64,000 bases of DNA from an uncultured Candidatus Saccharibacteria bacterium (GTDB lineage Bacteria; Patescibacteriota; Minisyncoccia; UBA6257; WO2-44-18). The notes beneath the pieces are model-generated. The model made no database searches and was not told where the DNA came from. It saw only the letters and a program-made list of their open reading frames with translations. The stretch's first letter is position 1, and each line of letters begins with the position of its first letter. Positions 691 to 62,123 of the stretch are shown here, piece after piece. The translations under genes and the position numbers were made by a program. Location: positions 3,054-67,053 of the forward strand of contig CAYJVO010000002.1 of assembly GCA_964373675.1 (NCBI GenBank). The letters are read 5' to 3'.

Positions 691-2769
691 ATGGATAAAA
701 AAATCGCCTACGTCAGCGATCTTACCCATACCCGACAAACGGTAGCGCTTAACACGATGCCGTTTCCGGTCGGCTGCCTAGTCAGTTACGCCAAAAAGTT
801 TGAACCGCTCAATCAGGCCTACGGATTTAAAATCTTCAAATATCCGGCAAAACTCATTGAGTCGCTACTGGCGCGGCTTCCGGACATCGCCTGCTTCAGC
901 AATTATTGCTGGAATTTTGACCTTGGTTACCAGTTCGCCGAACGGATTAAAAAGAAACGTCCCGAAACCATCATCATCTTTGGCGGGCCGAATTACCCCA
1001 CGGACCAATCGGAACAGCAAAAATTCTTTCTGGAACATCCGGCGATAGATTTTTACACCTATAAGGAAAGCGAAGCTGCCTTTTCCGAGCTCTTATTGAA
1101 ACTGACGGAAAACGAATTTAACGTTGAAGCGGTCAAACGCGTCAAGCCGCGCGGATGCCATTTCCTTATTGACGGCCAAATTGTCGCCGGCGAGCCGGCA
1201 GAACGAATCCGCAACTTGGATGAAATTCCCTCGCCGTATCTTACGGGCTTGATGGATGAATTTTTCGACCCGGTGCTGATTCCAATCATTCAAACCAATC
1301 GCGGCTGTCCTTTTGCCTGTACCTTCTGCGTTGAGGGCTTAACCTACTACAATAAAGTAAACAAACGTTCGGTGGATACGGTTCATCAAGAATTGTGCTA
1401 TATCGCCCAACGGCTCCCGCCAGCAGTTCACGATCTCCACATTACCGATTCCAATTTCGGGATGTATAAAGAAGACGAAGCGATCGGCGAAGCAATCGCC
1501 AAAGTTCAGGAAAAATACGGCTGGCCGCTCTATATCCATGTGGCAACCGGCAAGAATCAAAAAGAGCGCGTTCTTAAAGTGGCGAAAACCATTAATGGCG
1601 CCCTGCGCTTGGCCGGATCCGTGCAATCACTGACCGAAAAAGTTCTGGAAAACATCAAACGGGATAATATTTCCGCTGATGGACTGATGGAGTTAGCTAA
1701 AAAAGCCAATGAGTTAGGTGCCAATTCTTATTCAGAGATTATCACTTGCTTACCAGGAGAAACAAAGGAAAGCCACTTTAAAACTATAGAAACGGTGGTC
1801 AATGCCGGTTTCAAATGGGTGCGCATCTATCAACTGATGATGCTGATGGGCGTAGAAATTTCCGATCTGGCTACTCGTGATAAATTCGCAATGAAAACAA
1901 AATTCCGGGTACTGCCGCGCTGTTTCGGCGATTACGATTTCCAAAACCAAGATCCGATTCTTAGCGGCGAAATAGAAGAAATCTGCGTCGCCACTAATGA
2001 CATCTCTTTTGAAGAATACCTGGAGAGCCGACTCTTTCATCTAACCGTGGAAATTTTCTACAGCGACAGTATTTCCGCGGAACTGGTAGAATTTCTCAAA
2101 CTCAACGGGATTTCCGTCTATCGGTGGCTGAAATTCATCCATGACCATCGCGACGCCTTCCCGGAAGAAATTAAAAAGCTGTATCAGCAGTTTTACCAAG
2201 AAACCAAGAACGAACTTTGGGATTCCAAAGAAGCGCTGGAAAAATTTGTCCGAAACCGCGAGGTAATCCAAAAATATGTCTCCGGCGAATACGGCAGCAA
2301 TCTGATCTTCAAATACAAAGCGCTGGCGATGACCAAACACTTCACCGATATTAATTCGGTTGGCTTTGAAGCGGCCAAGAGTCTGCTTGCCGAAGTCAAA
2401 CCCGAAGCGCTGGAACACTACGCCAAATACCTTGCCAACCTTCAACGCTATACCGATTGCCGAAAAACCGATATCTTCAATGTCCGGCTCAGCTTCACTG
2501 AACGATTTGATTATGATTTTAAGGAATTAGACCGTAGAGGCTTCTTCCTGATGCCAGACGAAGCATACCGACCAGAAGGAGTTCTGCTGCACTTTGCTTG
2601 CACTAGCTGGCAGATGAAGATTGTAGATGACGGTTTCAGGCAATACGGAACAACGACAGTCGGAATCAGCCGAATGCTCAGCAAAGTGTTCGTTGCCAAG
2701 CTCTATCGGGAGGTAAATTACGTGCAACTGACAGAATCAACAAGCGAAACTGCGCCCAAGCCCTCATGA
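691..2769 (+). CDS. B12-binding-domain radical SAM protein
   Basis: 692-aa ORF with a strong SD (AAGGAGG at 679-685). N-terminal B12-binding-like region (IIIFGGPNYP) is followed by TNRGCPFACTFC, the CxxxCxxC radical SAM motif. Confidence 0.8.
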   Translation: MDKKIAYVSDLTHTRQTVALNTMPFPVGCLVSYAKKFEPLNQAYGFKIFKYPAKLIESLLARLPDIACFSNYCWNFDLGYQFAERIKKKRPETIIIFGGPNYPTDQSEQQKFFLEHPAIDFYTYKESEAAFSELLLKLTENEFNVEAVKRVKPRGCHFLIDGQIVAGEPAERIRNLDEIPSPYLTGLMDEFFDPVLIPIIQTNRGCPFACTFCVEGLTYYNKVNKRSVDTVHQELCYIAQRLPPAVHDLHITDSNFGMYKEDEAIGEAIAKVQEKYGWPLYIHVATGKNQKERVLKVAKTINGALRLAGSVQSLTEKVLENIKRDNISADGLMELAKKANELGANSYSEIITCLPGETKESHFKTIETVVNAGFKWVRIYQLMMLMGVEISDLATRDKFAMKTKFRVLPRCFGDYDFQNQDPILSGEIEEICVATNDISFEEYLESRLFHLTVEIFYSDSISAELVEFLKLNGISVYRWLKFIHDHRDAFPEEIKKLYQQFYQETKNELWDSKEALEKFVRNREVIQKYVSGEYGSNLIFKYKALAMTKHFTDINSVGFEAAKSLLAEVKPEALEHYAKYLANLQRYTDCRKTDIFNVRLSFTERFDYDFKELDRRGFFLMPDEAYRPEGVLLHFACTSWQMKIVDDGFRQYGTTTVGISRMLSKVFVAKLYREVNYVQLTESTSETAPKPS

Positions 2770-3768
2770 TGAGGGCTTTTTGTTAACGTTCAGAGACAAA
2801 AAATCGTTAGTATCATAACGAGGAATCAAAAAAGCGGAATCTTTGGGAGTAATGGAACGCCGCTCAATAGTGACCGCGTACCGGAAACCGATCTCATCCA
2901 GAAGATTAGCCGTTTCGGGGGCGTAACGGCCGTGGGGATAAGAAAAAACATCCACCCCCTTCCCCAAAAGTTCCTCCAAAATCTTTTTAGAAGTTTGCAG
3001 ATCGGCGCGCGCCTTTTCTACCGGTAATACCTCAAACGAATTATGACCATGCGAATGACTCCCGATCACCATACCCTCCGCATCAAGCTTGCGCACCTGG
3101 TCGGAGCCCATAAATAAAGCTCGGCATAAAACCTCTTCATCCAAACCGAATTTTTCAAAGTAAAAATGTAAAAACTGCTCCCTGGTAACCGAAGGCAAAG
3201 TAATCATCGCCTCTTTAAAATTATTTGTCAGCCTATCGCCGTGCTTCCGGCGATTATCAATGCTGCGATCTTTCGGAATCACGTAGGCTCCTTGCGACCA
3301 ACTGTTGAAAAGGTCAATCAGTTCGCTCGGCGACGAACGGGAAAAAAGGATGTGAAGCTTATGGGTTAAAGGCAGCTTGCCGCCGAAAATAGAAGTAATG
3401 ACAAAAAAAGTCCCGGTCGCCTTATATTTTTTTAAGATCGGCGCGGCATTTTCGTAGTTATCCCTGAATCCGTCGTCAAAGGTAAACGCGCAAAACTTAC
3501 CGGAACTTCCTTCTCGCGCGGCCTGGTATACCTCGGGCACCGAAACTATGCGGAAACGCTCGACTAACCATTGCACCTGCCGATCAAACTCCTTAATAGA
3601 GCATGGGTGAATCCCGCCCCAAGCCGGATCAGGATCCCGTACGTAGTGATAAGTAACGATGATGTAATTTTCTTTTTCCATAATGATCTTAGACGCCTGT
3701 AATCTGCGCCAAAAAATCCACGCTGCGTTTGTAGGATAATCCGTCGGTATACCGGACATGCGAAGCAA
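2764..3768 (-). CDS. polysaccharide deacetylase (NodB/CE4 family)
   Basis: FTFDDGFRDNYENAAPILKKYKATGTFFV matches the NodB motif. The true start may be the internal Met at 3681 (MEKENYIIV), which would remove the overlap with the upstream gene. Confidence 0.75.
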   Translation of the reverse strand: MLRMSGIPTDYPTNAAWIFWRRLQASKIIMEKENYIIVTYHYVRDPDPAWGGIHPCSIKEFDRQVQWLVERFRIVSVPEVYQAAREGSSGKFCAFTFDDGFRDNYENAAPILKKYKATGTFFVITSIFGGKLPLTHKLHILFSRSSPSELIDLFNSWSQGAYVIPKDRSIDNRRKHGDRLTNNFKEAMITLPSVTREQFLHFYFEKFGLDEEVLCRALFMGSDQVRKLDAEGMVIGSHSHGHNSFEVLPVEKARADLQTSKKILEELLGKGVDVFSYPHGRYAPETANLLDEIGFRYAVTIERRSITPKDSAFLIPRYDTNDFLSLNVNKKPSS

Positions 3769-5104
3769 CGATGCGCCGCCGCGCCTCGCCGTCCAGTTTT
3801 GGATTATCCAGATACAGGTTGATCAATTTCGGCAGATCTTCATCAGTTTTAGCCAAGCGCACTGCACCACTCTCGTAAATCGGTCGGTAATGGTTGAATT
3901 GGTATGCTAAGGCAAAACGATCAATATAGCCGATATTAATAATCGGTTTGTCAAAAATACAGGCCTCAATGGAAATGGTAGAAGCATAATTAATATTCAA
4001 ATCAGTATACTTTAAAGAATATTTCAAATTCAATAAATCGCCGTAATTCATTTCTACTTTCCCGTCGGTATATTTACCAGCCGGATCAATGCAAAGATCC
4101 GAAGTATTTAAAAATTCTTTGTAATGGTCGTAAACATCTAGCGGGTGGATACGAATGAATAAATTAACGTAAGGAATTATTTTATCTTCTCGCAAGCGGA
4201 TAAGATCGCGGATGTATTTTTTTTGAAATGGATACGCTTTAGTAACCGTGGTATGGAAAATTGTTTTATAAGCCGGATTTAGTCCTTTGGATTTTAAAAA
4301 CTCCTCCCTTGAGGGTATGTGATTCGAAATATCCGAATTCCATTCAAATAATTCTAAACCATCTTTGTTTTCGGATAATTCGGATGTATTAGAATTTTTT
4401 GAATCGCTTCTATCAAAGTAAGGATCAAAACGTGGCGTCCCGGAAACAAAAATCTTATCCGGCAGATAACGATGAATCTCAAGAACCTCTTTTTTAATAA
4501 TATCGTTCCAGGCAATCAAATAATCAGTTTTCCGGATATGTTTGGCATTGGTTGTCGGATTATCCCAAGAAGCGTTAATCGCAACAGTTGGAATCTTTAG
4601 CTTTTTAGCCGATAAAATAATTTCTGCCTCCCAGCTATCAAATCCCGGCGTTGCCGTAATCACCAAGGCTGGCTGATATTTCCCCGCTAATTCCAAAAAC
4701 CGCCGCGATCTTGGCAATAAGATTTCCTCCAGCCAAGTAAAAAAATCAGCGGTTAAAAACGGCGAAAAAGGCTTGCCGAAAAACCTCAAAATGCGCCGCT
4801 TCCAATTATTTTTATAATTCGGCCGCTTATACCAATGACGAATAGAGGCTAGATAATCAAACTCATTTACTAAGCTGATCCGTAAAAATTTAAAGAATTC
4901 CCAGAATTTCGGACTAGCCGCCCTCAGCTTTTCGTAAAAAACATTGGATGACTGCAGATAATTGCGCTGTTTCGCGATCTCGGCATCAATCATCGGAGTC
5001 AATACCACCGCACGGTATTTGCTTGAAAGGTATTCAATATATTTTGTCCGCAATAGGTCGCTGGTGGCAATATAATTGGGAAGCGCTAAAAAAACAGTTC
5101 GCAT
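3689..5104 (-). CDS. TagF-like CDP-glycerol glycerophosphotransferase family protein; carries an in-frame 89-bp repeat insertion
   Basis: 471 aa with a GTPRFD motif typical of the TagB/TagF family. An SD (GGAG) is supplied by the R1 repeat immediately upstream. Residues NSNTSELSENKDGLELFEWNSD are encoded by the MITE-like repeat at 4319-4407. Confidence 0.6.
   Translation of the reverse strand: MRTVFLALPNYIATSDLLRTKYIEYLSSKYRAVVLTPMIDAEIAKQRNYLQSSNVFYEKLRAASPKFWEFFKFLRISLVNEFDYLASIRHWYKRPNYKNNWKRRILRFFGKPFSPFLTADFFTWLEEILLPRSRRFLELAGKYQPALVITATPGFDSWEAEIILSAKKLKIPTVAINASWDNPTTNAKHIRKTDYLIAWNDIIKKEVLEIHRYLPDKIFVSGTPRFDPYFDRSDSKNSNTSELSENKDGLELFEWNSDISNHIPSREEFLKSKGLNPAYKTIFHTTVTKAYPFQKKYIRDLIRLREDKIIPYVNLFIRIHPLDVYDHYKEFLNTSDLCIDPAGKYTDGKVEMNYGDLLNLKYSLKYTDLNINYASTISIEACIFDKPIINIGYIDRFALAYQFNHYRPIYESGAVRLAKTDEDLPKLINLYLDNPKLDGEARRRIVASHVRYTDGLSYKRSVDFLAQITGV
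4319..4407. mobile_element. 89-bp MITE-like repeat, copy 1, in-frame inside the TagF-like CDS
   Basis: About 90% nucleotide identity to 10674-10762. The termini are inverted: GTGATTCGAAAT...TTTTTTGAATCGC. Confidence 0.65.
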
Positions 5105-5105: not shown

Positions 5106-5215
5106 CTAAATTTTATTCTCCTTCGCCGAAAACCCCGGGCGGCCTACTCCGCCGAGTCTGACTCGGCTACGAAGGCTGGATAAGCCCGCGGGATGAAGGC
5201 GAGGAGCTTCATTTT
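5106..5215 (-). repeat. R1 structured repeat copy (supplies SD for the TagF-like gene and extends the dehydrogenase ORF)
   Basis: Reverse complement equals GAAGCTCCTCGCCTTCATCCCGCGGGCTTATCCAGCCTTCGTAGCCGAGTCAGACTCGGCGGAGTAGGCCGCCCGGGGTTTTCGGCGAAGGAGAATAAA, and ends 7 nt before the ATG at 5104. Confidence 0.7.
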
Positions 5216-6179
5216 CTAAATTCTTAATTGCCTTAACCACTAACTCGCTAATATAAACTTGAGTGCGTTCAGTGGCTTCCTCGGTAGAGCCGCCCAAATG
5301 CGGCAAAATGATCAAATTCTGATTTTTCCTGGCGTATTCCACCAACGGATTATTAATCAAATGGGCGCCGTCCGGGGATTCATCTGCCAACGTATCAATT
5401 CCCGCTCCGGCAATCCATCCTTTTTTTAAAGCCTCCAGCAATGCGACCTCATCAGTAATTTCCCCGCGGGCGGTGTTGATAAAAACGGCGGTTGGCTTCA
5501 TGAGTTTAAAATGTTCCTGTTTAAGCATTTTATAAGTAGAATCATTGTAAACAGCGTGAAGAGAAACAACATCGGATAATTTTAAAAGATTAGGCAGATC
5601 CGCCTTAACAGCTCCGTATTTTTTCATCTCGGCGGCGCCGACAAAAGGATCATAAGCCAACGCCCTCATTCCAAAGGCCGCGCTGTAGCCAGCCACCAGC
5701 CGTCCCAGCCGGCCAAAACCAATCAAACCGATAGTTTTTCCAGAAAGTTCCCGGCCGCTGTATTTAGCCCGATCCCATTCGCCTTTCTTAATCGCTTCAA
5801 ACCCCCAAGGAATTTTTCGCAACAGCGCCAAAATTAAAGCCATTGTTTCCTCAGCGGTAGAAGGAGTTTTGTGAAGAGCGGGAGCATCAGCTTTTATATT
5901 AACTATCTTAATGCCGCGCCGCCTGCACTCATCCAAATCCAAATACCTCAACTGGGTGGTGCGGGAACCGATCAGCTTTAATCTGCGCGCCCGATCCAAA
6001 ATAGGCTTATCAAACTTAACCTCCAAACCGGTCACTACCACATCGGCTTTTGACAAATTTCTAAAAAACTCCGCCCGCGATCCAAAATTAATCACCCGGC
6101 CGGATCGAGCAAGAATTTTTTTAGCTTTTGCGCTGAATTCTTTTTCCGCAATTAAAATATTAATTGATTTTTGAGCCAT
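5106..6179 (-). CDS. D-isomer-specific 2-hydroxyacid dehydrogenase (NAD-binding)
   Basis: GLIGFGRLGRLVAGY Rossmann motif and the typical family length. The last ~35 codons (RLHPAGLSSLRSRVRLGGVGRPGFSAKENKI) are read through the R1 repeat at 5106-5215, so the native C-terminus is probably earlier. Confidence 0.75.
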   Translation of the reverse strand: MAQKSINILIAEKEFSAKAKKILARSGRVINFGSRAEFFRNLSKADVVVTGLEVKFDKPILDRARRLKLIGSRTTQLRYLDLDECRRRGIKIVNIKADAPALHKTPSTAEETMALILALLRKIPWGFEAIKKGEWDRAKYSGRELSGKTIGLIGFGRLGRLVAGYSAAFGMRALAYDPFVGAAEMKKYGAVKADLPNLLKLSDVVSLHAVYNDSTYKMLKQEHFKLMKPTAVFINTARGEITDEVALLEALKKGWIAGAGIDTLADESPDGAHLINNPLVEYARKNQNLIILPHLGGSTEEATERTQVYISELVVKAIKNLENEAPRLHPAGLSSLRSRVRLGGVGRPGFSAKENKI

Positions 6180-6885
6180 ATTTTTTTATCAGCACCTCTG
6201 CCACCTCCCAATCAAAAGCGTCATTAATATCGTGAGCGGTCCAAGATTCAATGGGTAAACCAACTCGCTTTCCCACCTCAATCTTTTTTTCTTTTAAAAA
6301 AAGGTCTCTTCTAAAACAATAAACGCTGGCGAAAGCATATCGCTTGGGATCTGACTGTCTGGTTGGATGTTTATAATGAAGCTCCGGATTATCAAATTCC
6401 AAAAACCCATCGGCTGTTAAATGCCGCACGTGGTAGGGGTGAAAAGGTCTCGGCGCTTCAATGATGGTAATGCCCGAATCGGCTTTTTTATCACGGATAA
6501 GTTTAAATAATGCATCAATCTGTTCAGTAAGCACAAACGGCGAAGTAGGCTGGACCATAAAAACATATTCCGGACAATAATTTTCATTTTTTTCCAGCCA
6601 CTCAAGGGCGTGAAAAATAACCGGCGGCATCGGCGTGCCGTCTTCAGCTAATTCCGCCGGCCGCAAAAAAGGCGCTTCAGCGCCGTATCTTTTAGCGATC
6701 TCGGCGATTTTCTGATCGTCAGTGGTAATCACTACTCGGTCTACGAACCGGCTTTTTTTCAATGCTTTAATTGAATAAGCAATCAGCGGCTGGCCATTCA
6801 ATAATCTAATGTTCTTCCCCGGCAGTCCCTTAGAACCTCCTCTGGCAGGGACCAAACCCAAAAAACCAAATTTTTCCGATTGCAT
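6160..6885 (-). CDS. acylneuraminate (CMP-nonulosonic acid/CMP-Kdo) cytidylyltransferase family
   Basis: GLVPARGGSKGLPGKNIRLLNGQPLIAYSI is the N-terminal motif of CMP-NeuAc/Kdo synthetases. The longest ORF extends to 6930 as MCGFTW..., reading through an inverted-repeat cassette arm. Start at the Met at 6885 (MQSEKFG) is preferred. Confidence 0.7.
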   Translation of the reverse strand: MQSEKFGFLGLVPARGGSKGLPGKNIRLLNGQPLIAYSIKALKKSRFVDRVVITTDDQKIAEIAKRYGAEAPFLRPAELAEDGTPMPPVIFHALEWLEKNENYCPEYVFMVQPTSPFVLTEQIDALFKLIRDKKADSGITIIEAPRPFHPYHVRHLTADGFLEFDNPELHYKHPTRQSDPKRYAFASVYCFRRDLFLKEKKIEVGKRVGLPIESWTAHDINDAFDWEVAEVLIKKYGSKIN

Positions 6886-6921
6886 GGTAAAATTAATAAC
6901 ATAAAATAACAGCCAAGTAAA

Positions 6922-7134
6922 CCCGCACATAACTAGGACTGCAACAGCCTCGCTTCTCTGAAAAAAACGCCATCATTCACAATTTTTTATCAGCAAATCT
7001 TCGTAGCAATAGCAGTTTAACGCGTTAAACGCTTTGACGCGTCAAAGCACTATCCCATGGGATAGTGCTAGGAAATAACCCCACACAGCTTTGTCTCAGG
7101 CATTGAAGAAAGCGGAGTCCTAGTTATGTGCGGG
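6922..7134. mobile_element. inverted-repeat cassette, family A copy 1 (TIR CCCGCACATAACTAGGACT / AGTCCTAGTTATGTGCGGG)
   Basis: 19-bp perfect terminal inverted repeats at 6922-6940 and 7116-7134. The interior contains the perfect palindromes GCTTTGACGCGTCAAAGC and AGCACTATCCCATGGGATAGTGCT. The interior plus right arm is repeated at 45014-45174. Confidence 0.6.
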
Positions 7135-7206
7135 GCAAGCCCCGAGAAAATTAATAACTATATTAATAATTCCTAAATTAACTTAATAACCACTCAATAA
7201 CTACCA

Positions 7207-7297
7207 AACTATAACCTGTGCTATAACCTGTGCTATAAACTACATTATAAACTGTGCTATAAACTATACTATGCTATAAACTATACTATAAACTATT
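7207..7297. repeat. iteron-like tandem repeats (CTATAAAC/CTATAACCTGTG units, about 7 copies)
   Basis: Direct reading of 7207-7297 shows the tandem units. The block lies in a 710-bp non-coding region. Confidence 0.7.
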
Positions 7298-7343: not shown

Positions 7344-7346
7344 TTT

Positions 7347-27027: not shown

Positions 27028-28128
27028 CTATTTCACAATCTTAACAGAATCTTTACCTTCGAAAGAAAGATTATTCAACGTTTTTCCCTTAACAATACCT
27101 TCTGTATCTCCGGGCCGCAAATTAGTTCTCCGTGTATCAAAGTGGCAAATCAAATCCAAAAAGCCATCATTATTTATATCCTCTCCATTTTTATTACAAA
27201 ACACCAAGCTTTTTTCTTCACCTGTTTTACCAAACGTTAAGGAAATTGTATCCACAACACGAGGTGCATCAAAATTACCATCCGATAATAGAGCTATGGG
27301 AATCATACCATGGCTTTTACTATTAATTGCATTAGGATCGCTACCGGGTTTGATGTCTATATTAATTTGCTTTATAAGCGGATCACCTAAAAATCTAAAA
27401 GCTAAGTCGTTAAGAGCTCCAATAAACTGCCATTGCCCTTGTTTAAAATACATTAAATGGCCGTTTGGATAAATGTCTATGAAATCCGGGGGGTCCCAGG
27501 CACGAATCAAAGTGTTGTCACTCTCAATCACCATGGCGTAGGGAACATTTGCCGCCAGAACAAGGGGGGCTGTGGTAATATCTAGTACTGTAACAAATGA
27601 AGTAAGATCGCACGGGACGCCAGAAATTGTATATGAAGCCAGCGAAGCGCCGAAAGGAAAATCTGGGAAAGTGCTGATGGTGTCAATCTGATAAAAATGG
27701 ATGTTGAATAAAGAACCGCAAACGGGCATTTGAATCTTCGACACCCGGCCTCCTTTTTTACCCTTAACGCCTTTAAATTTAACATCAACATCTTTTGGTT
27801 CGGGCATCCCTTCCCAAGAATCAAAAAGCCAAATATCTCTATTTCTGGCGACCCTTGCTATAATCCCAGCGCTTCCTCCATTCCAAACACCACACTCCAC
27901 AAAACTGCCCTCAATACCATTCTTTTCTAGATTAAGAGCTTGCTCGTAGAGATTAGAAAGTCTTCGATAAGAGAGCAATGTATACGGTTTAACTTTTAAA
28001 ATAAGTATTATTTTTTTGAGCTGGAATAAGTCACTGGGCTTAATTCCAGCAAAAAATTTTCTTGTGGCTTTTATCTTCAGATACAGCCATTGAGTCAAAG
28101 CATTGCTTTTTAATAATTTTTTGATCAT
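27028..28128 (-). CDS. TylF-like SAM methyltransferase domain fused to a C-terminal domain of unknown function
   Basis: SFVECGVWNGGSAGIIARVA...IWLFDSWEGMPEP matches the TylF family. The C-terminal ~200 aa show no recognised motif. Confidence 0.5.
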   Translation of the reverse strand: MIKKLLKSNALTQWLYLKIKATRKFFAGIKPSDLFQLKKIILILKVKPYTLLSYRRLSNLYEQALNLEKNGIEGSFVECGVWNGGSAGIIARVARNRDIWLFDSWEGMPEPKDVDVKFKGVKGKKGGRVSKIQMPVCGSLFNIHFYQIDTISTFPDFPFGASLASYTISGVPCDLTSFVTVLDITTAPLVLAANVPYAMVIESDNTLIRAWDPPDFIDIYPNGHLMYFKQGQWQFIGALNDLAFRFLGDPLIKQINIDIKPGSDPNAINSKSHGMIPIALLSDGNFDAPRVVDTISLTFGKTGEEKSLVFCNKNGEDINNDGFLDLICHFDTRRTNLRPGDTEGIVKGKTLNNLSFEGKDSVKIVK

Positions 28129-43402: not shown

Positions 43403-43759
43403 ATGGAAAAGGGTTATAAAAAATTGATGGCCTACCGCGAAGGTCACAAATTAGTTCTGCAAACTTATCTTGCAACTAGTAAGTTTCCTAAGTCAGAATT
43501 ATTCGGACTTGTTTCTCAAATGCGTAGGGCGGCGGTGTCTGTGGTGGCAAACATCTTAGAAGGCCAGGCCAGAATAAGTAAAAAGGAATTTAAAAATTTC
43601 ATCTCTATCACTAATGGATCCCTTGTTGAATTGGAATATTATCTTGAACTATCACGAGAATTGAATTACATTAACAGGAACGATTATGAGGAAGTAGAAA
43701 AGCAAAGAGCTCTTACTGGCTCTTTATTGGGTGGATTACTTCGTTACCTTAAATCTTAA
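43403..43759 (+). CDS. four-helix-bundle protein (23S rRNA intervening-sequence protein family; Avd-like)
   Basis: 118 aa. YREGHKLVLQTY...LVSQMRRAAVSVVANILEG...NGSLVELEYYLELS matches the TIGR02436-type four-helix-bundle family. Confidence 0.7.
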   Translation: MEKGYKKLMAYREGHKLVLQTYLATSKFPKSELFGLVSQMRRAAVSVVANILEGQARISKKEFKNFISITNGSLVELEYYLELSRELNYINRNDYEEVEKQRALTGSLLGGLLRYLKS

Positions 43760-45226: not shown

Positions 45227-46162
45227 TTATCCGGAGATTAATTTTTTAAATTCTTTCAGTTTGGCTAAAAAGGTTTTTTTATCCTTAGCTTCTAAGTTCA
45301 GGCGCAGGAGGTCTTCGGTCTGTGATGGCCGCACATTAAACCACCAGGCCCCAAATTCCATTTTCAGACCATCTAGATGAGAAAGTCTTTGGGCTTCTTT
45401 TTTATATTTCTGTTCAATCTTTGTTAAAATTTTTTCTTTGTCGCTGACTCTAAAATTTATCTCTCCGGAACGATGATATTTTGGTAAGCCATCAATCCAC
45501 TCACCCAAACTCAAGCCTTGATACCTGATACCTGATATCTGATTCATAAAATAAATCGCCGTCAAAATTCCTGAATCCCAAACCGCGCTGAATTCCTTAA
45601 ACTTAAAGTAGTAATGCCCGGAAGTTTCGGCAGCAAAATCAATTTTCTTTTTATTCATCAGTTTTTTAATAAAGTAATGGCCAACTCGCGAATTAATAAT
45701 TTTTTTGCCATCGGCTGAAATCAATTCTCTGGCTAAATAGCCGGCGCGAACATCTAAAATCAAGGGTCCTTTAAAACTTCTACTTATCAACACTGCCACC
45801 GCATCCGGCGCCACCGGCTGGCCACGATCGTCTAAGAAAAATACCCGATCACCATCCGCGTCAAAAATAATGCCGAGGTCGGCTTTATGTTTACGCACTG
45901 CTGTCCGCAAATCATTAAACGCATCTCTCCTCCATGGATCCGGCCCATGCGCCGGAAAACGACCATCAGGTCTATCATTAATTAAAATAGGCTTAACTCT
46001 TGATACTTGACGCTTGACACTTGATACTCGGAAAAGTTCTTTAAGAACTTTTCCGGTGGTTCCATTAGAGCAATCAAAAACAACTTTTAAAGCTCTTTCT
46101 AGCTTTAAAAACTTTTTCAAAAAATTTATGTATAACTCCAAATAATCCATGTCGCATTTCAC
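45227..46162 (-). CDS. phosphoglucomutase/phosphomannomutase, C-terminal domains II-IV (split from N-terminal ORF; GTG start)
   Basis: 311 aa starting at a GTG that overlaps the stop of the upstream ORF (AAAATGTGAAATGC). Contains in-frame heptamer arrays at 45527-45546 and 45999-46028. Confidence 0.65.
   Translation of the reverse strand: MKCDMDYLELYINFLKKFLKLERALKVVFDCSNGTTGKVLKELFRVSSVKRQVSRVKPILINDRPDGRFPAHGPDPWRRDAFNDLRTAVRKHKADLGIIFDADGDRVFFLDDRGQPVAPDAVAVLISRSFKGPLILDVRAGYLARELISADGKKIINSRVGHYFIKKLMNKKKIDFAAETSGHYYFKFKEFSAVWDSGILTAIYFMNQISGIRYQGLSLGEWIDGLPKYHRSGEINFRVSDKEKILTKIEQKYKKEAQRLSHLDGLKMEFGAWWFNVRPSQTEDLLRLNLEAKDKKTFLAKLKEFKKLISG
45527..45546. repeat. heptamer array (CCTGATA x3) inside PMM CDS
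   Basis: CTTGATACCTGATACCTGATATCTGATT. It encodes QISGIRYQG. Confidence 0.75.
45999..46028. repeat. heptamer array (CTTGAYR x4) inside PMM CDS
   Basis: CTTGATACTTGACGCTTGACACTTGATACT. It encodes VSSVKRQVSRVK. Confidence 0.75.
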
Positions 46163-46614
46163 ATTTTGCCTTTTACCATCGATAAAATTTCCTTGCCGCT
46201 GATTGGCGCTGCTTTCGGCCCAACAATTTTTAACCCGTTGTATTCTTTTGGGTTATGGGAAGCCGTGATTATAATCCCGCCAATTGCCTTAAAATGGTTT
46301 ACCAAAAAATAAAGCATTGGCGTGGTGATCATTCCCGCTTCCACAATCTTGACACCTGATACCTGACACATGACACGCACCATCGTTTCATACAACGCCG
46401 GCGAGCTCAATCTCGCGTCGTGTCCCACCATTACAACTTTTGACTTTTGACCTTCCCTCGACCTGAGCTCGGGACGAAGGTTGGCTTTTGACTTGAAAAA
46501 ATAGCGACCCAACGCGTAGGCAATTCTAGCCGCTATTTTTTCATTTATCTCCTCCGGATACCGACCGCGGATGTCGTATGCTTTGAATATTGCTTTATTT
46601 ATCATTAGTTTCAT
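46159..46614 (-). CDS. phosphoglucomutase/phosphomannomutase, N-terminal domain I (contains active-site TASHNP)
   Basis: GGIIITASHNPKEYNGLKIVG is the PGM/PMM phosphoserine loop. 151 aa, ending 4 nt into the next ORF. Confidence 0.7.
   Translation of the reverse strand: MKLMINKAIFKAYDIRGRYPEEINEKIAARIAYALGRYFFKSKANLRPELRSREGQKSKVVMVGHDARLSSPALYETMVRVMCQVSGVKIVEAGMITTPMLYFLVNHFKAIGGIIITASHNPKEYNGLKIVGPKAAPISGKEILSMVKGKM
46339..46368. repeat. heptamer array (CTTGACA CCTGATA CCTGACA CATGACA) inside PMM N-domain CDS
   Basis: It encodes VMCQVSGVKI. Confidence 0.8.
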
Positions 46615-48744: not shown

Positions 48745-49392
48745 ATGGAAAAGTCTCTAAAAGAACTCCTTAAAGAACAGCTAGAACTAAAAGGAATCTC
48801 CATGCAACGGCTGCATCAGTTAACCAGCGTCCCGGAAAGATATCTTGCCGGCATTTTAGAAATTGACCCGCGCAACATTCCTGCCTTGCCATATGTAAGG
48901 GGTTATTTAATAAAAATCGGGGAGATATTGGGTTTAGACGGCGAAGAGCTTTGGAAAAAATACAAAAAAGAAACGGAGATTAAAAGCTCAGGAGAAAAAG
49001 ATTGTCTGCCAGAGAATCGCTACGCCATTAAAACAATAAACAGGCGCTGGACGATTCTGGTCGTCATTGTGGTGTTGGCGATTGGCTATGCCACTCTGAA
49101 TGCCGGCAGAATTCTTGGAAGACCGGAATTAACAATCCATTCACCAATCCAAGACCAAACTATAACGGCGAATACGATTTACAATCTCTCTGGGAAAATT
49201 AATCCCCGGGACACTCTTAAAATTAACGGTGAGGAAGTTGTGGTAGAAACTGACGGACAATTTGATAAATTCTACAGTCTCCAGCCCGGCTTAAACACTT
49301 TTGTATTTAGCGTCAAACGGCTTTTAGGAAAAGAGGCCCGAGTCGTAAAACAACTGATTTACCAACCACAACAACAAGTTGGCAATAAATAA
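48745..49392 (+). CDS. RodZ-like protein (N-terminal XRE-type HTH, single TM, C-terminal domain)
   Basis: [22 protein letters not shown] is HTH-like, followed by TM helix [17 protein letters not shown]. Confidence 0.45.
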
Positions 49393-51861: not shown

Positions 51862-53355
51862 TTATGCTCCTCTTTGCTCCGGCTGTCCACCGCGAATCTG
51901 ACGATACTGCTCTTTGTACTTTTCAATCATTTTTTCGACTTCCTCATGGGGAATTTCAACTCTTAAAAGATCAATCGCATTGATTGTATCATAAATATCA
52001 AATTTATTTTTCAACTTATAAATTGCGTCGCGCCAAAGAATTGCTTTTTCATATTCGCCTTTTTTGACTGCCTTTTTTTCCAGCTTTCCCATTATATCAA
52101 GAAAAGCGTAATAAACTCCTTTTTCGGCGCCGCCCCGGCCAATGGTCCGGTCTTTGAAAGGAATGCGCAGAATCGCTTTTTGCTCACGCATCATTTGCCT
52201 AACCTTGCCTGCCCGCTGCCACTGAAATCCTGTTGAGATGATATTCTCATACCAGGTCCGGGCTTTTTCCAGTTTTTCTTTGTCTAAATTAGGAATCGCC
52301 CGCATAAAATCCAGCAAGCGGTAAGCGCCGTCTTCAATCATTTCCAAACTCCACCACGGCTTGGCCGAAGCCCACCAAATGTGATCGCTGGCCAGCGCTA
52401 TATCCATCTTCTTCCGGACCAAGGAATAAGCGGGGTGATTTTTATCAAGAGCGTAAACTTCGTTCAACGCGAACTTAACAAACTCCCACTGCCAGTGATG
52501 AATCATATTTTCCGGATCAGACCAGGAAAGAAACTGAATTTCTTTATTAATATCCTCCTGACTGGAGGCCCAGGTGGATTTAAGCGGCATTGCCTCTTCA
52601 ATTTCTTGGTAATACTCCGGGATTTCTGATACTTTTATTAATTCAAATTCGGGCGCCTCAAAAATCTCAAATAGCATTTTTTCAAGGCCCGGCCGGTGAT
52701 GACCGAAGGTCTCGCCATCCATTGCCGTTACCAAATATCGCCCGCTTTTTAAGTCATCTTTCATTGCCTCAACCAACGTTTCGCGCGATCTGACCACCGC
52801 GCTCATTATCAAATTACTCAATCTTCTTTCCCTGAAAAAAATTTTTAGATTTGTGCCTTTAATCCGATAAATTTTTTTGTAATCAACACTGCCAACCCGG
52901 CCATTTAAGGCAATTTCATCTAGGATTATCCATTTAAAACCGAGGTCGTTAATAATCGGCGCTAATTTCTCATGATAAGCCATCTCCGGCGGAAAAAATC
53001 CCTCGGGATTATAAGCGTCGCCCAGAAAAAATCGGCAAGTTTCGTCGTTGATTTTAATCTGCCGGACAATTTCCTGTTCTTCCAAAAATGGCAAAAAAGC
53101 ATGGTACTTGGCCGAACTAGTGTATTCAACCCGTCCTTCTTTGCCTAATTCCCGCAAAATATCAATGAGTCCTTGATATTTATATTTATCAAAAACTTCC
53201 AAAAGCGCCCCACTTACATTAAAAGTAAGACGAACCCGCTTATGCTTCTTAATGCCCTCCAGAATCGGCCGGTAACTTTGGGCGACAATCGCTTCCAAAA
53301 TATCCGGCTGCTGCTCGGCCGGCTGATAGATGTGTAAAAAATTAGCCCAGTACAT
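51862..53355 (-). CDS. glycoside hydrolase family 57 protein (alpha-glucan branching/amylopullulanase-like)
   Basis: The N-terminus MYWANFLHIYQP matches the GH57 HxHQP start. 497 aa. Confidence 0.75.
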   Translation of the reverse strand: MYWANFLHIYQPAEQQPDILEAIVAQSYRPILEGIKKHKRVRLTFNVSGALLEVFDKYKYQGLIDILRELGKEGRVEYTSSAKYHAFLPFLEEQEIVRQIKINDETCRFFLGDAYNPEGFFPPEMAYHEKLAPIINDLGFKWIILDEIALNGRVGSVDYKKIYRIKGTNLKIFFRERRLSNLIMSAVVRSRETLVEAMKDDLKSGRYLVTAMDGETFGHHRPGLEKMLFEIFEAPEFELIKVSEIPEYYQEIEEAMPLKSTWASSQEDINKEIQFLSWSDPENMIHHWQWEFVKFALNEVYALDKNHPAYSLVRKKMDIALASDHIWWASAKPWWSLEMIEDGAYRLLDFMRAIPNLDKEKLEKARTWYENIISTGFQWQRAGKVRQMMREQKAILRIPFKDRTIGRGGAEKGVYYAFLDIMGKLEKKAVKKGEYEKAILWRDAIYKLKNKFDIYDTINAIDLLRVEIPHEEVEKMIEKYKEQYRQIRGGQPEQRGA

Positions 53356-54868
53356 TTCTTGTCAATGCTTTGGCCGCTTCAAATATCTTTAAATAATCGG
53401 CAGCTGAACGCTTCCAGGAAAAATCTTTTGCCATGGCCCTTTTTTTAATTTCCTGCCAGGTTTTCAAATCACGATAAACTTCAAACGCTCGGGAAACGGC
53501 AACCACTAAAGACATCGGGTCAAAGGCCTCAAAAACAAAACCAGTCCCGCTCTCGTTAACTGGATCGTAGTCTTCTACCGTATCAGCTAAACCGCCGGTT
53601 TTACGAACAATGGGAATCGCTCCGTAACGCATTGCTTCCATCTGTATTAAGCCCGATGGTTCAAACTTGGAAGGAATCAAAATCGCATCCGCGCCGGCAT
53701 AAACCAAATGCGGCAAATCTTTGTCAAAACTCAAATGAGCAGCCGCCTGTCCTTTAAACCGACTTTCCAAATCCTGAAAAAAAGACATGTACTTTGATTC
53801 TCCGGTTCCTAAAATAACTAGCTGAAATTTCAATTCCTTCAAGAGCTGGTCAACGACCGGAAACAACAAATCAAACCCTTTTTGTTCCATTAAACGGGAA
53901 ACGATTCCTACTAAAAATACTTTCTCATCTTGAGGCAAACCGAAGCGCGACTGCAAATGAAGTTTATTTTTAACTCTTTTATCCAAACTATCAAGATTGT
54001 AACGCTCGGCTAAATTAGGATTGGTTTCCGGATTAAAAATTTTGTAATCAATCGCATTCAGTATGCCGTAAAGCCGCGAACGGCGCTCCCTTAGCAAACC
54101 ATCCAACCCCTCGCCAAATTCCGGCGTAGTGATCTCTCTAGCGTAATTCTGGGAAACGGTGGTAATGATGTCCGCATACAAAATGCCGCGGCGCATGCCA
54201 TTAATTTTTAAAAGCCGCGGATTGAAAAATGACGGGATTGAGGACTGACCGTCATCATAATCCAATTCGGAAATAAAACGGTGATCAAACATTCCCTGAT
54301 AATACAAATTATGAATAGTGAAAACGACGGCAATTTTGTTCAGTTTACCGTCGTTTTTATAGACGGTTTTTAAATAATTCGGCAGAAACCCGGTCTGCCA
54401 ATCGGAGGCCACGATTATATCCGGCTGCCATTTAGATACCCGAAGCCATTCCAAGGCGCCGCGGCACAAAAGCGTCCAGCGAACTGCGTCGTCGGCATAA
54501 CCGTAGACATTCGCCCGCTGCTCATAATATTCCATGTTTTCCAAAAAATAAGTCGTTGCCGGTGACCGCGGCACAGTTCCTTCTGTAAATTTTTTGACAT
54601 TGCAGGTCAAATATTTCGGTTCTGTATCCCCTTCAGCGTCAGTCGGCACCTGCAAACCCTCTAGTTCCATTTCCAATTTGAATTGCTGAAGATCAATGCC
54701 GGCATAACGCGGCACCAATACTCGCGCGTCATGGCCGATTTTCTTTAAGGCCCGGGGCAAAGAAAACATCACCTCTCCCAGCCCTCCCACCTTCATAAAT
54801 GGAGAACACTCCGGCGTAACAAAAAGAATTTTCAGCGGCGGTTTTTTGACAAAAAATGGAAATGCCAT
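53342..54868 (-). CDS. glgA: glycogen synthase (GT5, GlgA-like)
   Basis: KILFVTPECSPFMKVGGLGEV is the GlgA N-terminal ADP-glucose-binding motif. Confidence 0.85.
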   Translation of the reverse strand: MAFPFFVKKPPLKILFVTPECSPFMKVGGLGEVMFSLPRALKKIGHDARVLVPRYAGIDLQQFKLEMELEGLQVPTDAEGDTEPKYLTCNVKKFTEGTVPRSPATTYFLENMEYYEQRANVYGYADDAVRWTLLCRGALEWLRVSKWQPDIIVASDWQTGFLPNYLKTVYKNDGKLNKIAVVFTIHNLYYQGMFDHRFISELDYDDGQSSIPSFFNPRLLKINGMRRGILYADIITTVSQNYAREITTPEFGEGLDGLLRERRSRLYGILNAIDYKIFNPETNPNLAERYNLDSLDKRVKNKLHLQSRFGLPQDEKVFLVGIVSRLMEQKGFDLLFPVVDQLLKELKFQLVILGTGESKYMSFFQDLESRFKGQAAAHLSFDKDLPHLVYAGADAILIPSKFEPSGLIQMEAMRYGAIPIVRKTGGLADTVEDYDPVNESGTGFVFEAFDPMSLVVAVSRAFEVYRDLKTWQEIKKRAMAKDFSWKRSAADYLKIFEAAKALTRNVLG

Positions 54869-55795: not shown

Positions 55796-56614
55796 TTATT
55801 GAGTTGAATTAGTTGCTGGCTCCGACTCTTCCGGCTTTTCCGGCCTAGGAACCGCTTTTAACGCCTTCAACGCATCCCTTACGGCTTCGCGAGCCGCATG
55901 AATTTTCTCCCGAACCGCCTTCAAGTCGTTATTTAAAGCTCTTCGCGCCGCCGATACCGCTTCACCTAACTTAGTCTCATCGGTAAAAGTAATGGTATAA
56001 GTCTTGGCTAATTGAGCTTCAATAGCTGATCGCGCCTCGGTAATCAATTTCCGGGCAGCATCAATAGCTGTTCTAACGGAACCGACTTCTACGCCTTCCG
56101 CCGCAAGCTTATTGACACGATCCTCAACCTTATTCAAAGCTTCTTCAATTCGTCTCAAAACTTCTCCCCAATGCTTAGTTAGCTTCTCATTGATTTCATC
56201 AAAACGTTTATCCAAGCGCTCAACGATCTGCTTTTTACGTTCGTCGCGAACCTTCGCCAACCGCTCTTTGAGCTCTTCGCGCTTCTTTTCCGTGTCTTCT
56301 TTCATCTTGACGCGAGCCGCTTCTACTCTTTGCTTAAACTGTTCTTGCGCAGCGCGGATCGCTTCGCGCTTCTGGTCCGACGCTTTACGAATCGCTTCTT
56401 TCTGCTCATCGGTTAAAGCGCGGGTCGCCTCTCGTTTTTGTTCAGCGACCTTTTGAATCGCTTCTCTTTTTTCTTCCGCCGTTTGGCGAACTTCTTCCCC
56501 CACTCGCTCGCGAGTAGGCGTCGGAGAAGTAGTCTGCGCGACCGTCACTAGGCCATTACTCAAGATCAGGCCTAGCACCAAAGAAATATGGGTTAATTTT
56601 ATGTTGACCTTCAT
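55796..56614 (-). CDS. secreted coiled-coil repeat protein, hypothetical
   Basis: Signal peptide and repeated EQKREAIRKA/EQKREATRAL motifs. Confidence 0.45.
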   Translation of the reverse strand: MKVNIKLTHISLVLGLILSNGLVTVAQTTSPTPTRERVGEEVRQTAEEKREAIQKVAEQKREATRALTDEQKEAIRKASDQKREAIRAAQEQFKQRVEAARVKMKEDTEKKREELKERLAKVRDERKKQIVERLDKRFDEINEKLTKHWGEVLRRIEEALNKVEDRVNKLAAEGVEVGSVRTAIDAARKLITEARSAIEAQLAKTYTITFTDETKLGEAVSAARRALNNDLKAVREKIHAAREAVRDALKALKAVPRPEKPEESEPATNSTQ

Positions 56615-60102: not shown

Positions 60103-61005
60103 CTATAGGGCCGTTTCAATTATATAATCTAAAAGTTTCTGAAAACTTATCCCAACTGCTTTCGCCCCCTGCGGCAACAAACTCATCTCTGTCATTCCCG
60201 GCAAGGTATTAATCTCCAAAACGTATAAATTACTGTTCTCTATACTCTTTCCTCTATCCTCTAAAATAAAGTCTGTCCGTGAATATCCCTTCGCCCCAAT
60301 CGCTTTATGGGCCTTCAGTGCCGCCTGCTGGATTTTTTTAATCATCGGCGGCGGCAATTTCGGCGGCGTAATTTCCCGCGACGCGCCTTTTACGTATTTC
60401 GCTTTATAATCAAAAAACTTTGATTTAGAAATAATCTCCGTTGGCAAAAGCGGCCTCAACTGGCCGCCGACTTCCAGCACTCCGCAAGTCAGCTCACGGC
60501 CGGCAATATATTCCTGTGCCATGATTTTCCTGGAATGACCCGCGGCATTTTTCACTGCCATTTCCAATTCTTTAAAATTTCTGGCGATATTCACGCCGAC
60601 GCTGGATCCCCGATCCGCCGGTTTTATTACTATAGGAAAACCATTTGGCCGACCGGGCACCAGCAATCCGACTTTTTTAAAAACTGCTTCGGAGGCCAAC
60701 TTATCCATCCCTAACTCACTGGCCTGACTGCCGGATCCCGTAAAAGGAATTTCCAGTTTTTCCAAAATCCGCTGAACCGTCCCATCTTCACCATATTCTC
60801 CGTGCATAGCGATAAAAACCACATCAAAATTTTTCTTAAGCTGATCAAAGGTAATTGGCCACTTGCAGGATTTAGAAACCCTTATCGGTCTGGCATCATA
60901 CTTGGCGTGATCTAAAAATTTCAGCACCATTTGGCCACTCTTTAAAGAAATAGCGTGCTCTGCCGACGGCCCGCCCATTAAAACGGCGACGCGAATTTTC
61001 TTCAT
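60103..61005 (-). CDS. ddl: D-alanine--D-alanine ligase
   Basis: MKKIRVAVLMGGPSAEHAISLKSG at the N-terminus, an ATP-grasp core, and LEINTLPGMT at the C-terminus. Confidence 0.9.
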   Translation of the reverse strand: MKKIRVAVLMGGPSAEHAISLKSGQMVLKFLDHAKYDARPIRVSKSCKWPITFDQLKKNFDVVFIAMHGEYGEDGTVQRILEKLEIPFTGSGSQASELGMDKLASEAVFKKVGLLVPGRPNGFPIVIKPADRGSSVGVNIARNFKELEMAVKNAAGHSRKIMAQEYIAGRELTCGVLEVGGQLRPLLPTEIISKSKFFDYKAKYVKGASREITPPKLPPPMIKKIQQAALKAHKAIGAKGYSRTDFILEDRGKSIENSNLYVLEINTLPGMTEMSLLPQGAKAVGISFQKLLDYIIETAL

Positions 61006-62123
61006 AATTTCTTCTCAATAAGCCGCCTTACTACTTTATTCCATTTTCTCAACGGCTCATTAATAAACAAAGCTACGGCTTTTTCTCTTGAGTAGCCGAA
61101 TTCCTCCAATGTTTTAATTGCGCCAACCGCGTCATGTATCAACTGTTCGTACTCAGATTTTAAAACATTTTCAGCGGCCTCTTTTACTAAGCCGGGGAAA
61201 GATTTTTCCAACCGCTTTTCCAAAAATGGAATCTCCCGCTCTCTGATCTCCCGGAAATAATCATACCTGCCTTCGCCCGGCTTTAGCCGCAATAAAATTC
61301 TTCTCGGCTCCTCGCCTGTGGAAAAATAAGCTAAAATTTCATCCTTGGCGCGCGATTCCGCCCATTCTCGCTGTTCCCTCAAATAACGCTCGGCCAAATT
61401 CTTTGCTTCGCTTCTGGTCTGCGCCGGTTTTTCATTTAATAAAATAGTGCGATCTCTTTCTTCTTTAAATAAATGATTAATGGCGTGCTGTTCTTCGTGG
61501 ATTAGTGTCTGCGGCTTTTCGTTTTCTGGAACTTTTGCCGCGTTTTCAGCAATAATTGTTCCTTCAAGCTCGGGTATTAAAGATTTACGAATGTGAGCTC
61601 CTCTACTGACCTCGGCTGCTGCCAAATCGCGTTCTGTTAAAACCCGCTTTTCCGCAAAGGCCTGACTGCGTATTAAAGCATAATCTCTCAAATCATAGCA
61701 TCTAAAATACACAGTCATCGGTCCTTGAACCACCTCTACTTTGCCTTTTGGCGCTTGCCCGAATACTGCCTTAAAAAGGTCAGAGGGGTCAGGAATTCCT
61801 TCTGCCGCCTTTTTCACTGCCTCATGTTTAAGTCTATAACGGGCCAAAATAGTTCTAGTGATCAGTTTTTGTTCTTCTGTAAGACCGAATCTTTCCCCCA
61901 TTTCCTCAATAATGCTGTTTAACTCTTGAGGACCTATATCAGGATTGGCCCTGATGTTTGCTATAAGTTTTAATTCCAAATCAGCGATTCCTTCTTTTTG
62001 CGCCGCCAGCTTTTCTTTAAATTCTTCTAACTTGACTCGTTTCTCCTCTTTTGGGGCCTTTCTAACTTTTTCCAATTCCTCTTTAGACGAAAACTGTTCT
62101 GAAAACTCCAGCTTCTCTTTCAT
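61002..62123 (-). CDS. hypothetical protein
   Basis: About 373 aa and charged/helical. The longest ORF begins MCGM inside a cassette arm, so the Met at 62123 (MKEKLEF) is preferred. Confidence 0.4.
   Translation of the reverse strand: MKEKLEFSEQFSSKEELEKVRKAPKEEKRVKLEEFKEKLAAQKEGIADLELKLIANIRANPDIGPQELNSIIEEMGERFGLTEEQKLITRTILARYRLKHEAVKKAAEGIPDPSDLFKAVFGQAPKGKVEVVQGPMTVYFRCYDLRDYALIRSQAFAEKRVLTERDLAAAEVSRGAHIRKSLIPELEGTIIAENAAKVPENEKPQTLIHEEQHAINHLFKEERDRTILLNEKPAQTRSEAKNLAERYLREQREWAESRAKDEILAYFSTGEEPRRILLRLKPGEGRYDYFREIREREIPFLEKRLEKSFPGLVKEAAENVLKSEYEQLIHDAVGAIKTLEEFGYSREKAVALFINEPLRKWNKVVRRLIEKKL

Follow-up and report, generated by a model that had tools for sequence, protein, structure and literature searches.

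What is a 213-bp palindromic cassette doing at positions 6922–7134, in front of a cytidylyltransferase gene, in the DNA of an uncultured member of the Patescibacteria? The cassette (hereafter cassette A) lies in a 64,000-nt stretch of contig CAYJVO010000002.1, referred to throughout as the window, and is surrounded by a nonulosonic-acid/glycan gene cluster; the closest proteins to those of the window come from Patescibacteria/Parcubacteria metagenome-assembled genomes (MAGs). A first-pass annotation, made from the letters of the sequence alone, had described perfect inverted arms, three internal palindromes and a second partial copy bordered by direct repeats likened to a target-site duplication, and had argued that the cassette is mobile. 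We conclude, with a probability of about 0.65, that cassette A, enlarged and probably defunct, belongs to a family of small insertion elements that are non-coding, occur in Patescibacteria (Parcubacteria-like) and have inverted arms of 19–21 nt able to pair, and that its second copy (A') most likely arose by template switching. The parts of cassette A are as follows.

6922–6940, minus strand: gene-side arm, which reads AGTCCTAGTTATGTGCGGG towards the cytidylyltransferase gene and includes the ATG at 6930.
6941–7010, minus strand: remnant of a small hairpin and micro-open-reading-frame (micro-ORF) region, a homologue of the ATG-side module of the family, as judged by profile and alignment.
7015–7069, no strand assigned: three abutting perfect palindromes (16, 18 and 24 bp), inside ~105 bp that are absent from other members.
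7116–7134, plus strand: far arm; two derived substitutions are common to both arms, and pairing is still perfect.

The 19-bp arms, CCCGCACATAACTAGGACT (6922–6940) and AGTCCTAGTTATGTGCGGG (7116–7134), are exact reverse complements, as the first-pass annotation had seen. When as many as three mismatches are allowed, the 64 kb contain six matches to the 19-mer (at 6922, 7116, 21934, 22021, 45156 and 62124) against 0.01 expected, and none of 100 shuffles reached six. Besides cassette A and A', these matches mark two further elements.

21934–22039, minus strand: element B, 106 bp, with arms as in A; its neighbours are a methyltransferase gene and a Glyphos_transf gene.
62124–62200, minus strand: element D, a solo ATG-side module with one arm (62124–62142), the small hairpin and an intact 21-codon micro-ORF (62135–62200).

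Among the matches listed from public genomes and metagenomes, the 19-mer was also found in the Patescibacteria or groundwater contigs L010/L014, L015, L033, L047, L099, L129 and L131, in each of which it forms an inverted pair spanning 122–129 bp (67 bp in L015). Full-size relatives measure 106–135 bp, and L144 carries two elements within 9.8 kb. The remainder of the matches had to be set aside: 127 of the 136 listed 19-mer occurrences (121 of 130 without three viral contigs) are unrelated chance matches, which fall in a TnpB-like gene that gut Lachnospiraceae (Anthropogastromicrobium) carry in multiple copies and in which the 19-mer codes for SLSYVWE (L003–L013 and ~110 metagenome loci, L016–L135). 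The three viral (IMG/VR) contigs, L139–L141, are likewise unrelated, with near-matches at chance-level frequency that form direct, not inverted, repeats spaced 1.4 kb apart.

Alignment A1 and the profile give the family a common layout, read towards the gene: (T)AAT, CCCACACATAACTAAGACY, an AT-rich stretch, a small GC hairpin, RGTCTTAGTTATGTGTGGG and ATG. The small hairpin contains a compensatory pair, CGGCTTTGCCG in some copies and GCAGCGTTGCTGC in others, with a G-T intermediate also present, and is adjoined by a conserved TAnnAT (alignment A1). All ten loci (10 of 10) have the near arm directly against the ATG and the hairpin/micro-ORF module turned towards it, a fixed polarity with a two-sided binomial probability of ~0.002 under random orientation. 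On the opposite side, the flank of the full elements reads TAAT in 7/9, AAT in 8/9 and AT in 9/9, and in seven cases the far arm is preceded by TAA+T, the TAA being the upstream stop codon. Element B, whose near arm abuts the ATG at 21933, contains the upstream stop codon within its far arm (22025–22027), the upstream Glyphos_transf ORF entering the arm by five codons and ending at its TAA; element D abuts the ATG of ORF 61002..62123.

The genes that follow are of many kinds. In the window, the abutted start codons belong to the methyltransferase and to one gene of no known function; in Hainich contigs they belong to mltG-like, hisS, rpmJ, Mur ligase, rpsR and rplM genes, and in L151 to rpsK. 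The junctions that carry elements, some of them inside ribosomal-protein operons, include infA–rpmJ, rplQ–rplM, ssb–rpsR and rpsM–rpsK. The same homologous intergenic DNA is thus found directly upstream of non-homologous genes.

The family consists of multi-copy insertions that are absent from orthologous sites in relatives. At the site of element B, the Glyphos_transf and methyltransferase genes of L136 and L137 overlap by ATGA, with no element between them. The infA–rpmJ element of L144–L148 is absent from L151, L154 and L156, the rplQ–rplM element of L144 from L154 and L151, and the rpsM–rpsK element of L151 from L144; a profile search of L136–L138, L142, L143 and L154–L156 gave no match. 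At cassette A itself, the intergenic region (6886–7640) measures 755 bp, in which tandem repeats, members of another repeat family and a perfect palindrome of 46 bp accompany the cassette; in L138, a syntenic relative with a 77% identical cytidylyltransferase and the gene order kept, it measures 85 bp and contains none of these. The mobility proposed by the first-pass annotation therefore stands in the sense that the arms belong to an insertional multi-copy family, and the conserved presence at orthologous positions in all relatives that would speak against it was looked for and not found (85 bp against 755 bp in L138; overlapping genes in L136).

Filled and empty states can be compared directly at rplQ–rplM. 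The empty site of L154 reads TTTAAT^ATGGAATAT and the filled site of L144 reads TTTAAT, the 125-bp element (CCC...GGG) and ATGGAATAT, with no target duplication. A 2-bp AT duplication at TAATG junctions, considered from the flanks, was withdrawn, since the empty L154 site already reads TAATATG.

The arms vary in concert. Scored as a 21-bp stem over nine distinct elements, 95.8% of cells are paired and 10 of 21 pairs have changed on both sides; none of 500 shuffles reaches the arms on any of five measures. In the L151 subfamily eight arm positions differ (CCCTCACCCTTAAAGAACG / AGTTCTTTAAGGGTGAGGG), all of them compensated, and the outer CCCNCAC / GTGNGGG is invariant. Alleles of the infA–rpmJ element from one Hainich population include a mismatched pair in L047 and, in L144–L148, a pair restored by a second change. 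Read from sequence, this co-variation fits selection on pairing or a hairpin-templated correction.

The elements have a second conserved property. Of ten elements, full-size or solo, nine contain a micro-ORF of 21–24 codons that begins with ATG, the exception being element B, in which it is truncated by a 14-nt deletion. The micro-ORF recurs in window D, the Hainich type and the L151 type, which are three diverged lineages; it starts in the AT-rich part and stops inside the ATG-side arm, 9–11 nt before the ATG of the gene, and its length differences among intact copies are multiples of three. In eight of nine it is longer than in 96–99% of composition-matched shuffles; for the shorter window D, 16% of shuffles match it. 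No comparable ORF was found on the antisense strand of the elements, and the micro-ORF is absent from cassette A and from L015.

The arm also supplies an ATG of its own (ATG TGY GGG ATG), which opens the longest ORF at window 6930, L144 4939, L033 672, L099 3573 and L129 815 (minus strand); at two of these sites, L144 4939 and window 6930 (P0001), public gene calls start with MCG. Beside the elements, annotated N-termini are probably at least three codons too long, unless the in-arm ATG is used. At cassette A, the N-termini of homologues point to ATG 6885 as the likely start of the cytidylyltransferase, and P0001 (256 aa, MCGFTW...) begins at the in-arm ATG 6930. The 45 nt that had been reported between cassette and gene start count from that in-arm ATG; the distance from the cassette edge to ATG 6885 is 36 nt.

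Set against its relatives, the sequence of cassette A reads as that of an enlarged, degenerate and atypical member of the family and a rearranged relic, not the prototype for which it had been taken. The ~70 nt at 6941–7010 match profile positions 37–128 (nhmmer, E 0.004), in agreement with alignment A1, and the start codon of the micro-ORF is missing. The next ~105 bp (7011–7115), palindromes included, have no counterpart in any other family member. The flanks read GCTTGC...TTTACT, as against the canonical AAT...ATG, and no flanking repeat surrounds the cassette, whose stem potential remains strong (z −5.1 to −5.6). Cassette A would thus have retained its arms and ATG-side module, gained ~105 bp of palindrome-rich DNA and lost its micro-ORF and canonical flanks, and it is probably defunct. 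Above the gathering threshold, Rfam matched only two tRNAs in the window, and at E up to 1 nothing credible in region 6850–7700; phage and plasmid BLAST searches gave no match.

The palindromes themselves are real and abut one another, at 7015–7030 (16 bp, GTTTAACGCGTTAAAC), 7031–7048 (18 bp) and 7046–7069 (24 bp); only the length of the first, previously given as 12 bp, needed correction. They raise the alternative that the core common to A and A' is a non-mobile regulatory module, in which TTTAACGCGTTAAA, TTTGACGCGTCAAA and the 24-bp palindrome are operators of a dimeric regulator, placed upstream of two minus-strand genes (one for the cytidylyltransferase, the other for a small secreted protein). 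The first two palindromes are indeed variants of a single 14-bp motif, 17 bp apart (motif linked to the cassette A palindromes: TTTRACGCGTYAAA), and both copies of the core lie ~125–137 nt upstream of a minus-strand ATG. Moreover, the first 83 nt of the A/A' unit, with palindromes 1 and 2 whole and most of palindrome 3, are identical in the two copies, as against 8 transitions in the next 83 nt (Fisher p 0.007). That identity is the one indirect hint at the protein binding suggested by the first-pass annotation; it may reflect constraint on the palindromes or a recent gene conversion. The 64-kb window holds no further copies of the palindromes or of the operator motif beyond A and A', neither L138 nor L136 has the motif upstream of its cytidylyltransferase orthologue, and there is no adjacent regulator gene. 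Nor are perfect palindromes special to this site: those of at least 14 bp number 14 in the window, compared with 4.3 in shuffles, and they occur in other minus-strand intergenic gaps too (8875–8894, 11823–11838 and 26982–27003). We therefore regard a regulatory module as unlikely.

The second copy and the sequence that borders it comprise the following features.

6978–7143, plus strand: copied unit in cassette A, consisting of interior, arm and 9 bp of flank (GCAAGCCCC), from repeat comparison.
45018–45174, plus strand: A', the partial second copy (interior and one arm), which differs from A by 8 transitions.
44990–45017, plus strand: left copy of a 28-nt duplication (23 nt exact) that brackets A', from repeat comparison.
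45175–45202, plus strand: right counterpart of that duplication, which opens with the 9 nt of A's flank and forms the 5' half of a hairpin.

The partial copy reported earlier is borne out, with 158 of 166 positions identical between 6978–7143 and 45018–45183, and the match overruns the right arm by 9 bp (GCAAGCCCC). All eight differences are transitions, and because seven of them have GC in A and AT in A', A' is the decaying copy. The hairpin that follows was also correctly seen; it has a 22-bp stem (arms 45174–45195 and 45205–45226) and stands directly after the stop codon of a phosphoglucomutase (PGM) gene. The flanking direct repeat exists as well, although its exact 23-nt left copy lies at 44990–45012 rather than 44989–45011 and extends to 28 nt through a stretch carrying two transitions. 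The first base of A' that is homologous to A, 45018, directly follows the left 28-nt repeat; from there the homology passes through the single arm and continues for 9 nt (GCAAGCCCC) into the right repeat.

From this arrangement of junctions, A' is most likely a microhomology-mediated secondary copy of an A-type element, made by template switching during replication or repair. Copying would leave the target after ...CTTC, read the donor from 6978 to 7143 and re-enter the target at the 9-nt microhomology GCAAGCCCC; re-entry at this point would create the 28-bp duplication, and A' would later have decayed through GC-to-AT transitions. RNA-mediated copying would leave the same geometry; arm-dependent transposition would not. 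The A' site is empty and without arms in the closer relatives L142 and L143 (PGM 60–61% identical). An unrelated 67-bp arm pair occurs just after the PGM gene of L015 (PGM 47% identical), and conservation of the site by orthology was considered and rejected, L015 being distant and the closer L142 and L143 lacking arms; the L015 pair suggests a hotspot or an independent insertion, not inheritance.

These junctions bear directly on a second alternative, that of a cut-and-paste transposable element of the miniature inverted-repeat type (MITE), whose arms are the terminal inverted repeats bound by a transposase and whose 23-bp repeat at a transposed A' is a target-site duplication. Much about the family resembles a MITE: its members are small (213, 106, 122–135 and 67 bp, where MITEs stay below ~500 bp), have a longest internal ORF of 24 codons and no transposase gene, end in inverted arms of 19–21 bp, and are present in several copies (four window loci, two in the 9.8 kb of L144) with empty orthologous sites, and in the L151 subfamily both ends change together, as if one protein bound both. 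A flanking target-site duplication is used as a MITE diagnostic (PMC10969869), and here that diagnostic fails, as L144 and L154 differ by the exact element, A has no duplication and the repeat at A' overlaps the donor flank homology. Canonical copies, too, are without one. The target-site duplication of the first-pass annotation accordingly does not hold, for A' lacks one arm, carries 9 bp of A's flank and has homology that starts where the duplication ends. At 28 bp this duplication also exceeds typical transposase-made target duplications. The arms, moreover, show compensatory single-pair changes away from the consensus, and neither a cognate transposase nor the autonomous partner that the first-pass annotation had proposed looking for, whether transposase or recombinase, was found among the ~50 ORFs of the window. 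A cut-and-paste MITE is, in our view, quite improbable.

The third alternative keeps the geometry of A' and changes the intermediate. In target-primed reverse transcription, a transcript ending in ...GCAAGCCCC would have annealed to a nicked target and been incompletely copied, giving a 5'-truncated copy with a long variable duplication. The truncation, the 9-nt homology at the 3' junction and the 28-bp duplication are all as this would predict, reverse transcriptases are common in this phylum, an ORF ~1.5 kb from the orthologous site in L015 is reverse-transcriptase-like (by eye only), and a bAvd-like gene lies 1.3 kb from A'. However, no reverse transcriptase is present among the ~50 window ORFs, we know of no such mechanism for bacterial non-intron elements, and DNA-level template switching accounts for the same features, which leaves RNA-mediated copying with very little probability. 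Finally, the idea that the arm pairs are vertically inherited host structures (operon punctuation, terminators or processing sites), which their gene-junction position, strong stem potential and co-variation might recommend, is already contradicted by the filled/empty comparisons, the same junctions being empty in close relatives, the arm pairs preceding functionally unrelated genes and the interiors being homologous between unrelated loci.

Several observations weigh against the insertion-element reading. The ~50 window ORFs yielded neither a transposase nor a HUH enzyme, a recombinase or a reverse transcriptase, and in none of the loci compared does an arm pair enclose a gene. The co-variation of the arms is equally expected from two ends bound by one transposase and does not decide the matter alone. 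The absence of a target duplication is read at one filled/empty junction with flanks only ~80% identical, and at element B a 2-bp AT duplication would give the more sensible ancestral site. Cassette A is without the canonical flanks, and L015 has a possible 6-bp flank repeat (GTCAAT/GTCAAC). The scans of public genomes and metagenomes used exact patterns, their counts are lower bounds, and they were dominated by the chance coding match. Lastly, a sigma-70 consensus scan of the sense strand of the elements found no promoter (−35/−10 pair).

How does the family compare with known small repeats? The Correia elements of Neisseria (CREE) are similar in being non-coding elements of ~100–150 bp with inverted-repeat ends, intergenic and co-transcribed, as we infer for the elements described here. 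The ends of CREE pair in RNA and affect neighbouring expression, for which the counterpart here would be the paired arms. In CREE, promoters created at the ends, IHF binding, and RNase III binding and cleavage have been described (PMC2649163). The present family differs in its position flush with stop and start codons, its fixed polarity and its conserved micro-ORF. Correia elements also duplicate TA, and no TA duplication is seen in this family. Its terminal repeats are presumably unrelated to the Neisseria CREE sequence, and the phylum differs too.

REPINs offer a second parallel, as two short inverted units forming one hairpin of ~100 nt, extragenic in both cases; here, too, there is no target duplication, and we know of none reported for REPINs. 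The co-variation of the arms is likewise consistent with recognition of a hairpin on single-stranded DNA. REPINs form extragenic, within-genome populations (PMC8049555). Each REP, however, is itself an imperfect palindrome, whereas the 19-mer has no internal self-complementarity and pairs only with the opposite arm; the present family also has a long (~87 nt), conserved loop, and no RAYT (Y1 HUH) gene occurs in the 64-kb window. From the palindrome-associated elements of the IS200/IS605 type the family differs in having one small hairpin by the ATG-side arm and mutually complementary ends, in place of separate subterminal hairpins. By analogy, paired ends, the lack of a duplication and a constant 5' TAAT would fit an HUH-type single-strand hairpin system or a site-specific system better than DDE cut-and-paste, while arms that are not self-palindromic and a single subterminal hairpin depart from the REPIN/RAYT and IS200/IS605-type systems.

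RUP (~107 bp), BOX and ERIC (~127 bp) and the Rickettsia palindromic elements share with the family size, inverted ends and an intergenic location, which is transcribed in their case and presumably here, although for none of them has a position flush with both stop codon and following ATG been reported, nor a micro-ORF ending in the terminal repeat. Small intergenic repeats are tolerated inside operons or genes (PMC2229807, PMC3184786, PMC10969869). Putative mobile promoters (PMC3488235) resemble the family in the placement of homologous DNA immediately upstream of different genes, here rpmJ, rplM, rpsR, rpsK, hisS, mltG-like and methyltransferase genes; the elements differ from them in that no sense-strand sigma-70-type promoter was detected, and several copies lie in ribosomal-protein operons where a new promoter is unneeded. 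Integron attC sites were considered and rejected, since the arms (ACATAAC / GTTATGT) do not fit the cores RYYYAAC ... GTTRRRY and the hosts are housekeeping operons, not cassette arrays. A full-text literature search for MITEs together with Patescibacteria or the candidate phyla radiation returned nothing relevant.

Because several copies lie inside ribosomal-protein operons and no sense-strand sigma-70 promoter was detected, the elements are most simply co-transcribed with their neighbours. We infer transcription and each of the RNA-level steps that follow. The far arm would stop the upstream reading frame, which would allow the element to be tolerated inside operons. In the mRNA, the arms would pair into a 19–21-bp stem and loop the insert out, bringing UAAU beside AUG as in the empty site. 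Translation of the micro-ORF, from a start in the AU-rich loop, would open the stem for initiation or re-initiation at the gene start; the 3' arm would be melted, and the AUG of the gene exposed, by a ribosome leaving the upstream gene or by one on the micro-ORF. Such coupling of stem and micro-ORF would explain the exact position, the fixed polarity, the complementarity of the arms and the conservation of the micro-ORF. We accordingly put forward, tentatively and as a possibility with the odds against it, a self-neutralising element adapted to the dense operons of Patescibacteria: delivered site-specifically and without duplication between stop and start, it would preserve downstream translation through its arms and micro-ORF, the in-arm ATG possibly adding Met-Cys-Gly to host proteins.

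Two other roles for the arm were tried and rejected. As the −10 box of a leaderless mRNA it offers no hexamer (A at 2, T at 6) at the right distance, and as a Shine-Dalgarno sequence it is not complementary to the usual 16S 3' tail (not the host's own 16S) and its spacing to the ATG is zero. Independently of the arms, many window genes have TATAAT 7–9 nt before the ATG and no Shine-Dalgarno sequence (for example 53342..54868, 55796..56614, 27028..28128 and 48745..49392), a sequence pattern which suggests that leaderless or near-leaderless mRNAs are frequent in this organism.

The window holds other repeats besides the arm family. In the intergenic region of cassette A, 7216–7294 consist of tandem CTATAAACT-type repeats and 7301–7346 form the 46-bp perfect palindrome, which has CCATGG at its centre. 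Repeats of a second family, 80–87 nt long (88–96% identical), occur at 5111–5197 (minus strand), 7529–7608 (plus) and 56938–57024 (plus), with short copies at 7432–7456 and 7549–7573, a GC-rich palindrome CGGAGCCGAGTCTGACTCGGCGGAG and a terminal GGCGAAGGAGAATAAA; the copy at 5111–5197 codes for the C-terminus of ORF 5106..6179 and also gives ORF 3689..5104 its ribosome-binding site. Positions 4318–4407 and 10673–10762, 90 nt each and 90% identical to one another, lie within two different coding genes (a Glyphos_transf-like ORF and a methyltransferase) and may be an in-frame repeat insertion.

Around A', the PGM/phosphomannomutase gene is split, domain I being apart from domains II–IV (45227..46150 and 46159..46614), as it is in several relatives, including L015 (1665..2564 and 2582..3028) and L143. 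Heptamer arrays (ACCTGAT, ACTTGAC) are found at eleven places in the window, including 43371–43403, 43756–43840, 19527, 28548, 29716, 37144, 45516, 45998 and 46347. Two inverted arrays flank a 23S_rRNA_IVP/bAvd-like ORF (43403..43759) in the manner of a small cassette, and in the syntenic relative L138 a 23S_rRNA_IVP/bAvd-like gene is likewise inserted in the glycan cluster. Finally, L154, a close relative of the Hainich genome without arm elements, carries a different, arm-less repeat of ~125 nt (2126–2250 and 2828–2955), inserted immediately behind the infA stop codon TAA and, a second time, behind that of rpsM. Elements of more than one family have settled at operon junctions in these bacteria.

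For cassette A itself the lesson is modest, its second copy illustrating microhomology-mediated duplication, not transposition. In practical terms, gene callers that start at the in-arm ATG (MCG... N-termini) probably make neighbouring annotations too long, systematically and by a few codons. The genomes of Patescibacteria are very small and gene-dense, and the general view is that they contain few mobile elements. If the account given here is true, the harmless-looking colonisation of zero-length junctions in ribosomal operons would offer a natural example of insertion that preserves translational coupling, and would reveal a way for selfish DNA to endure in genomes that have been streamlined.

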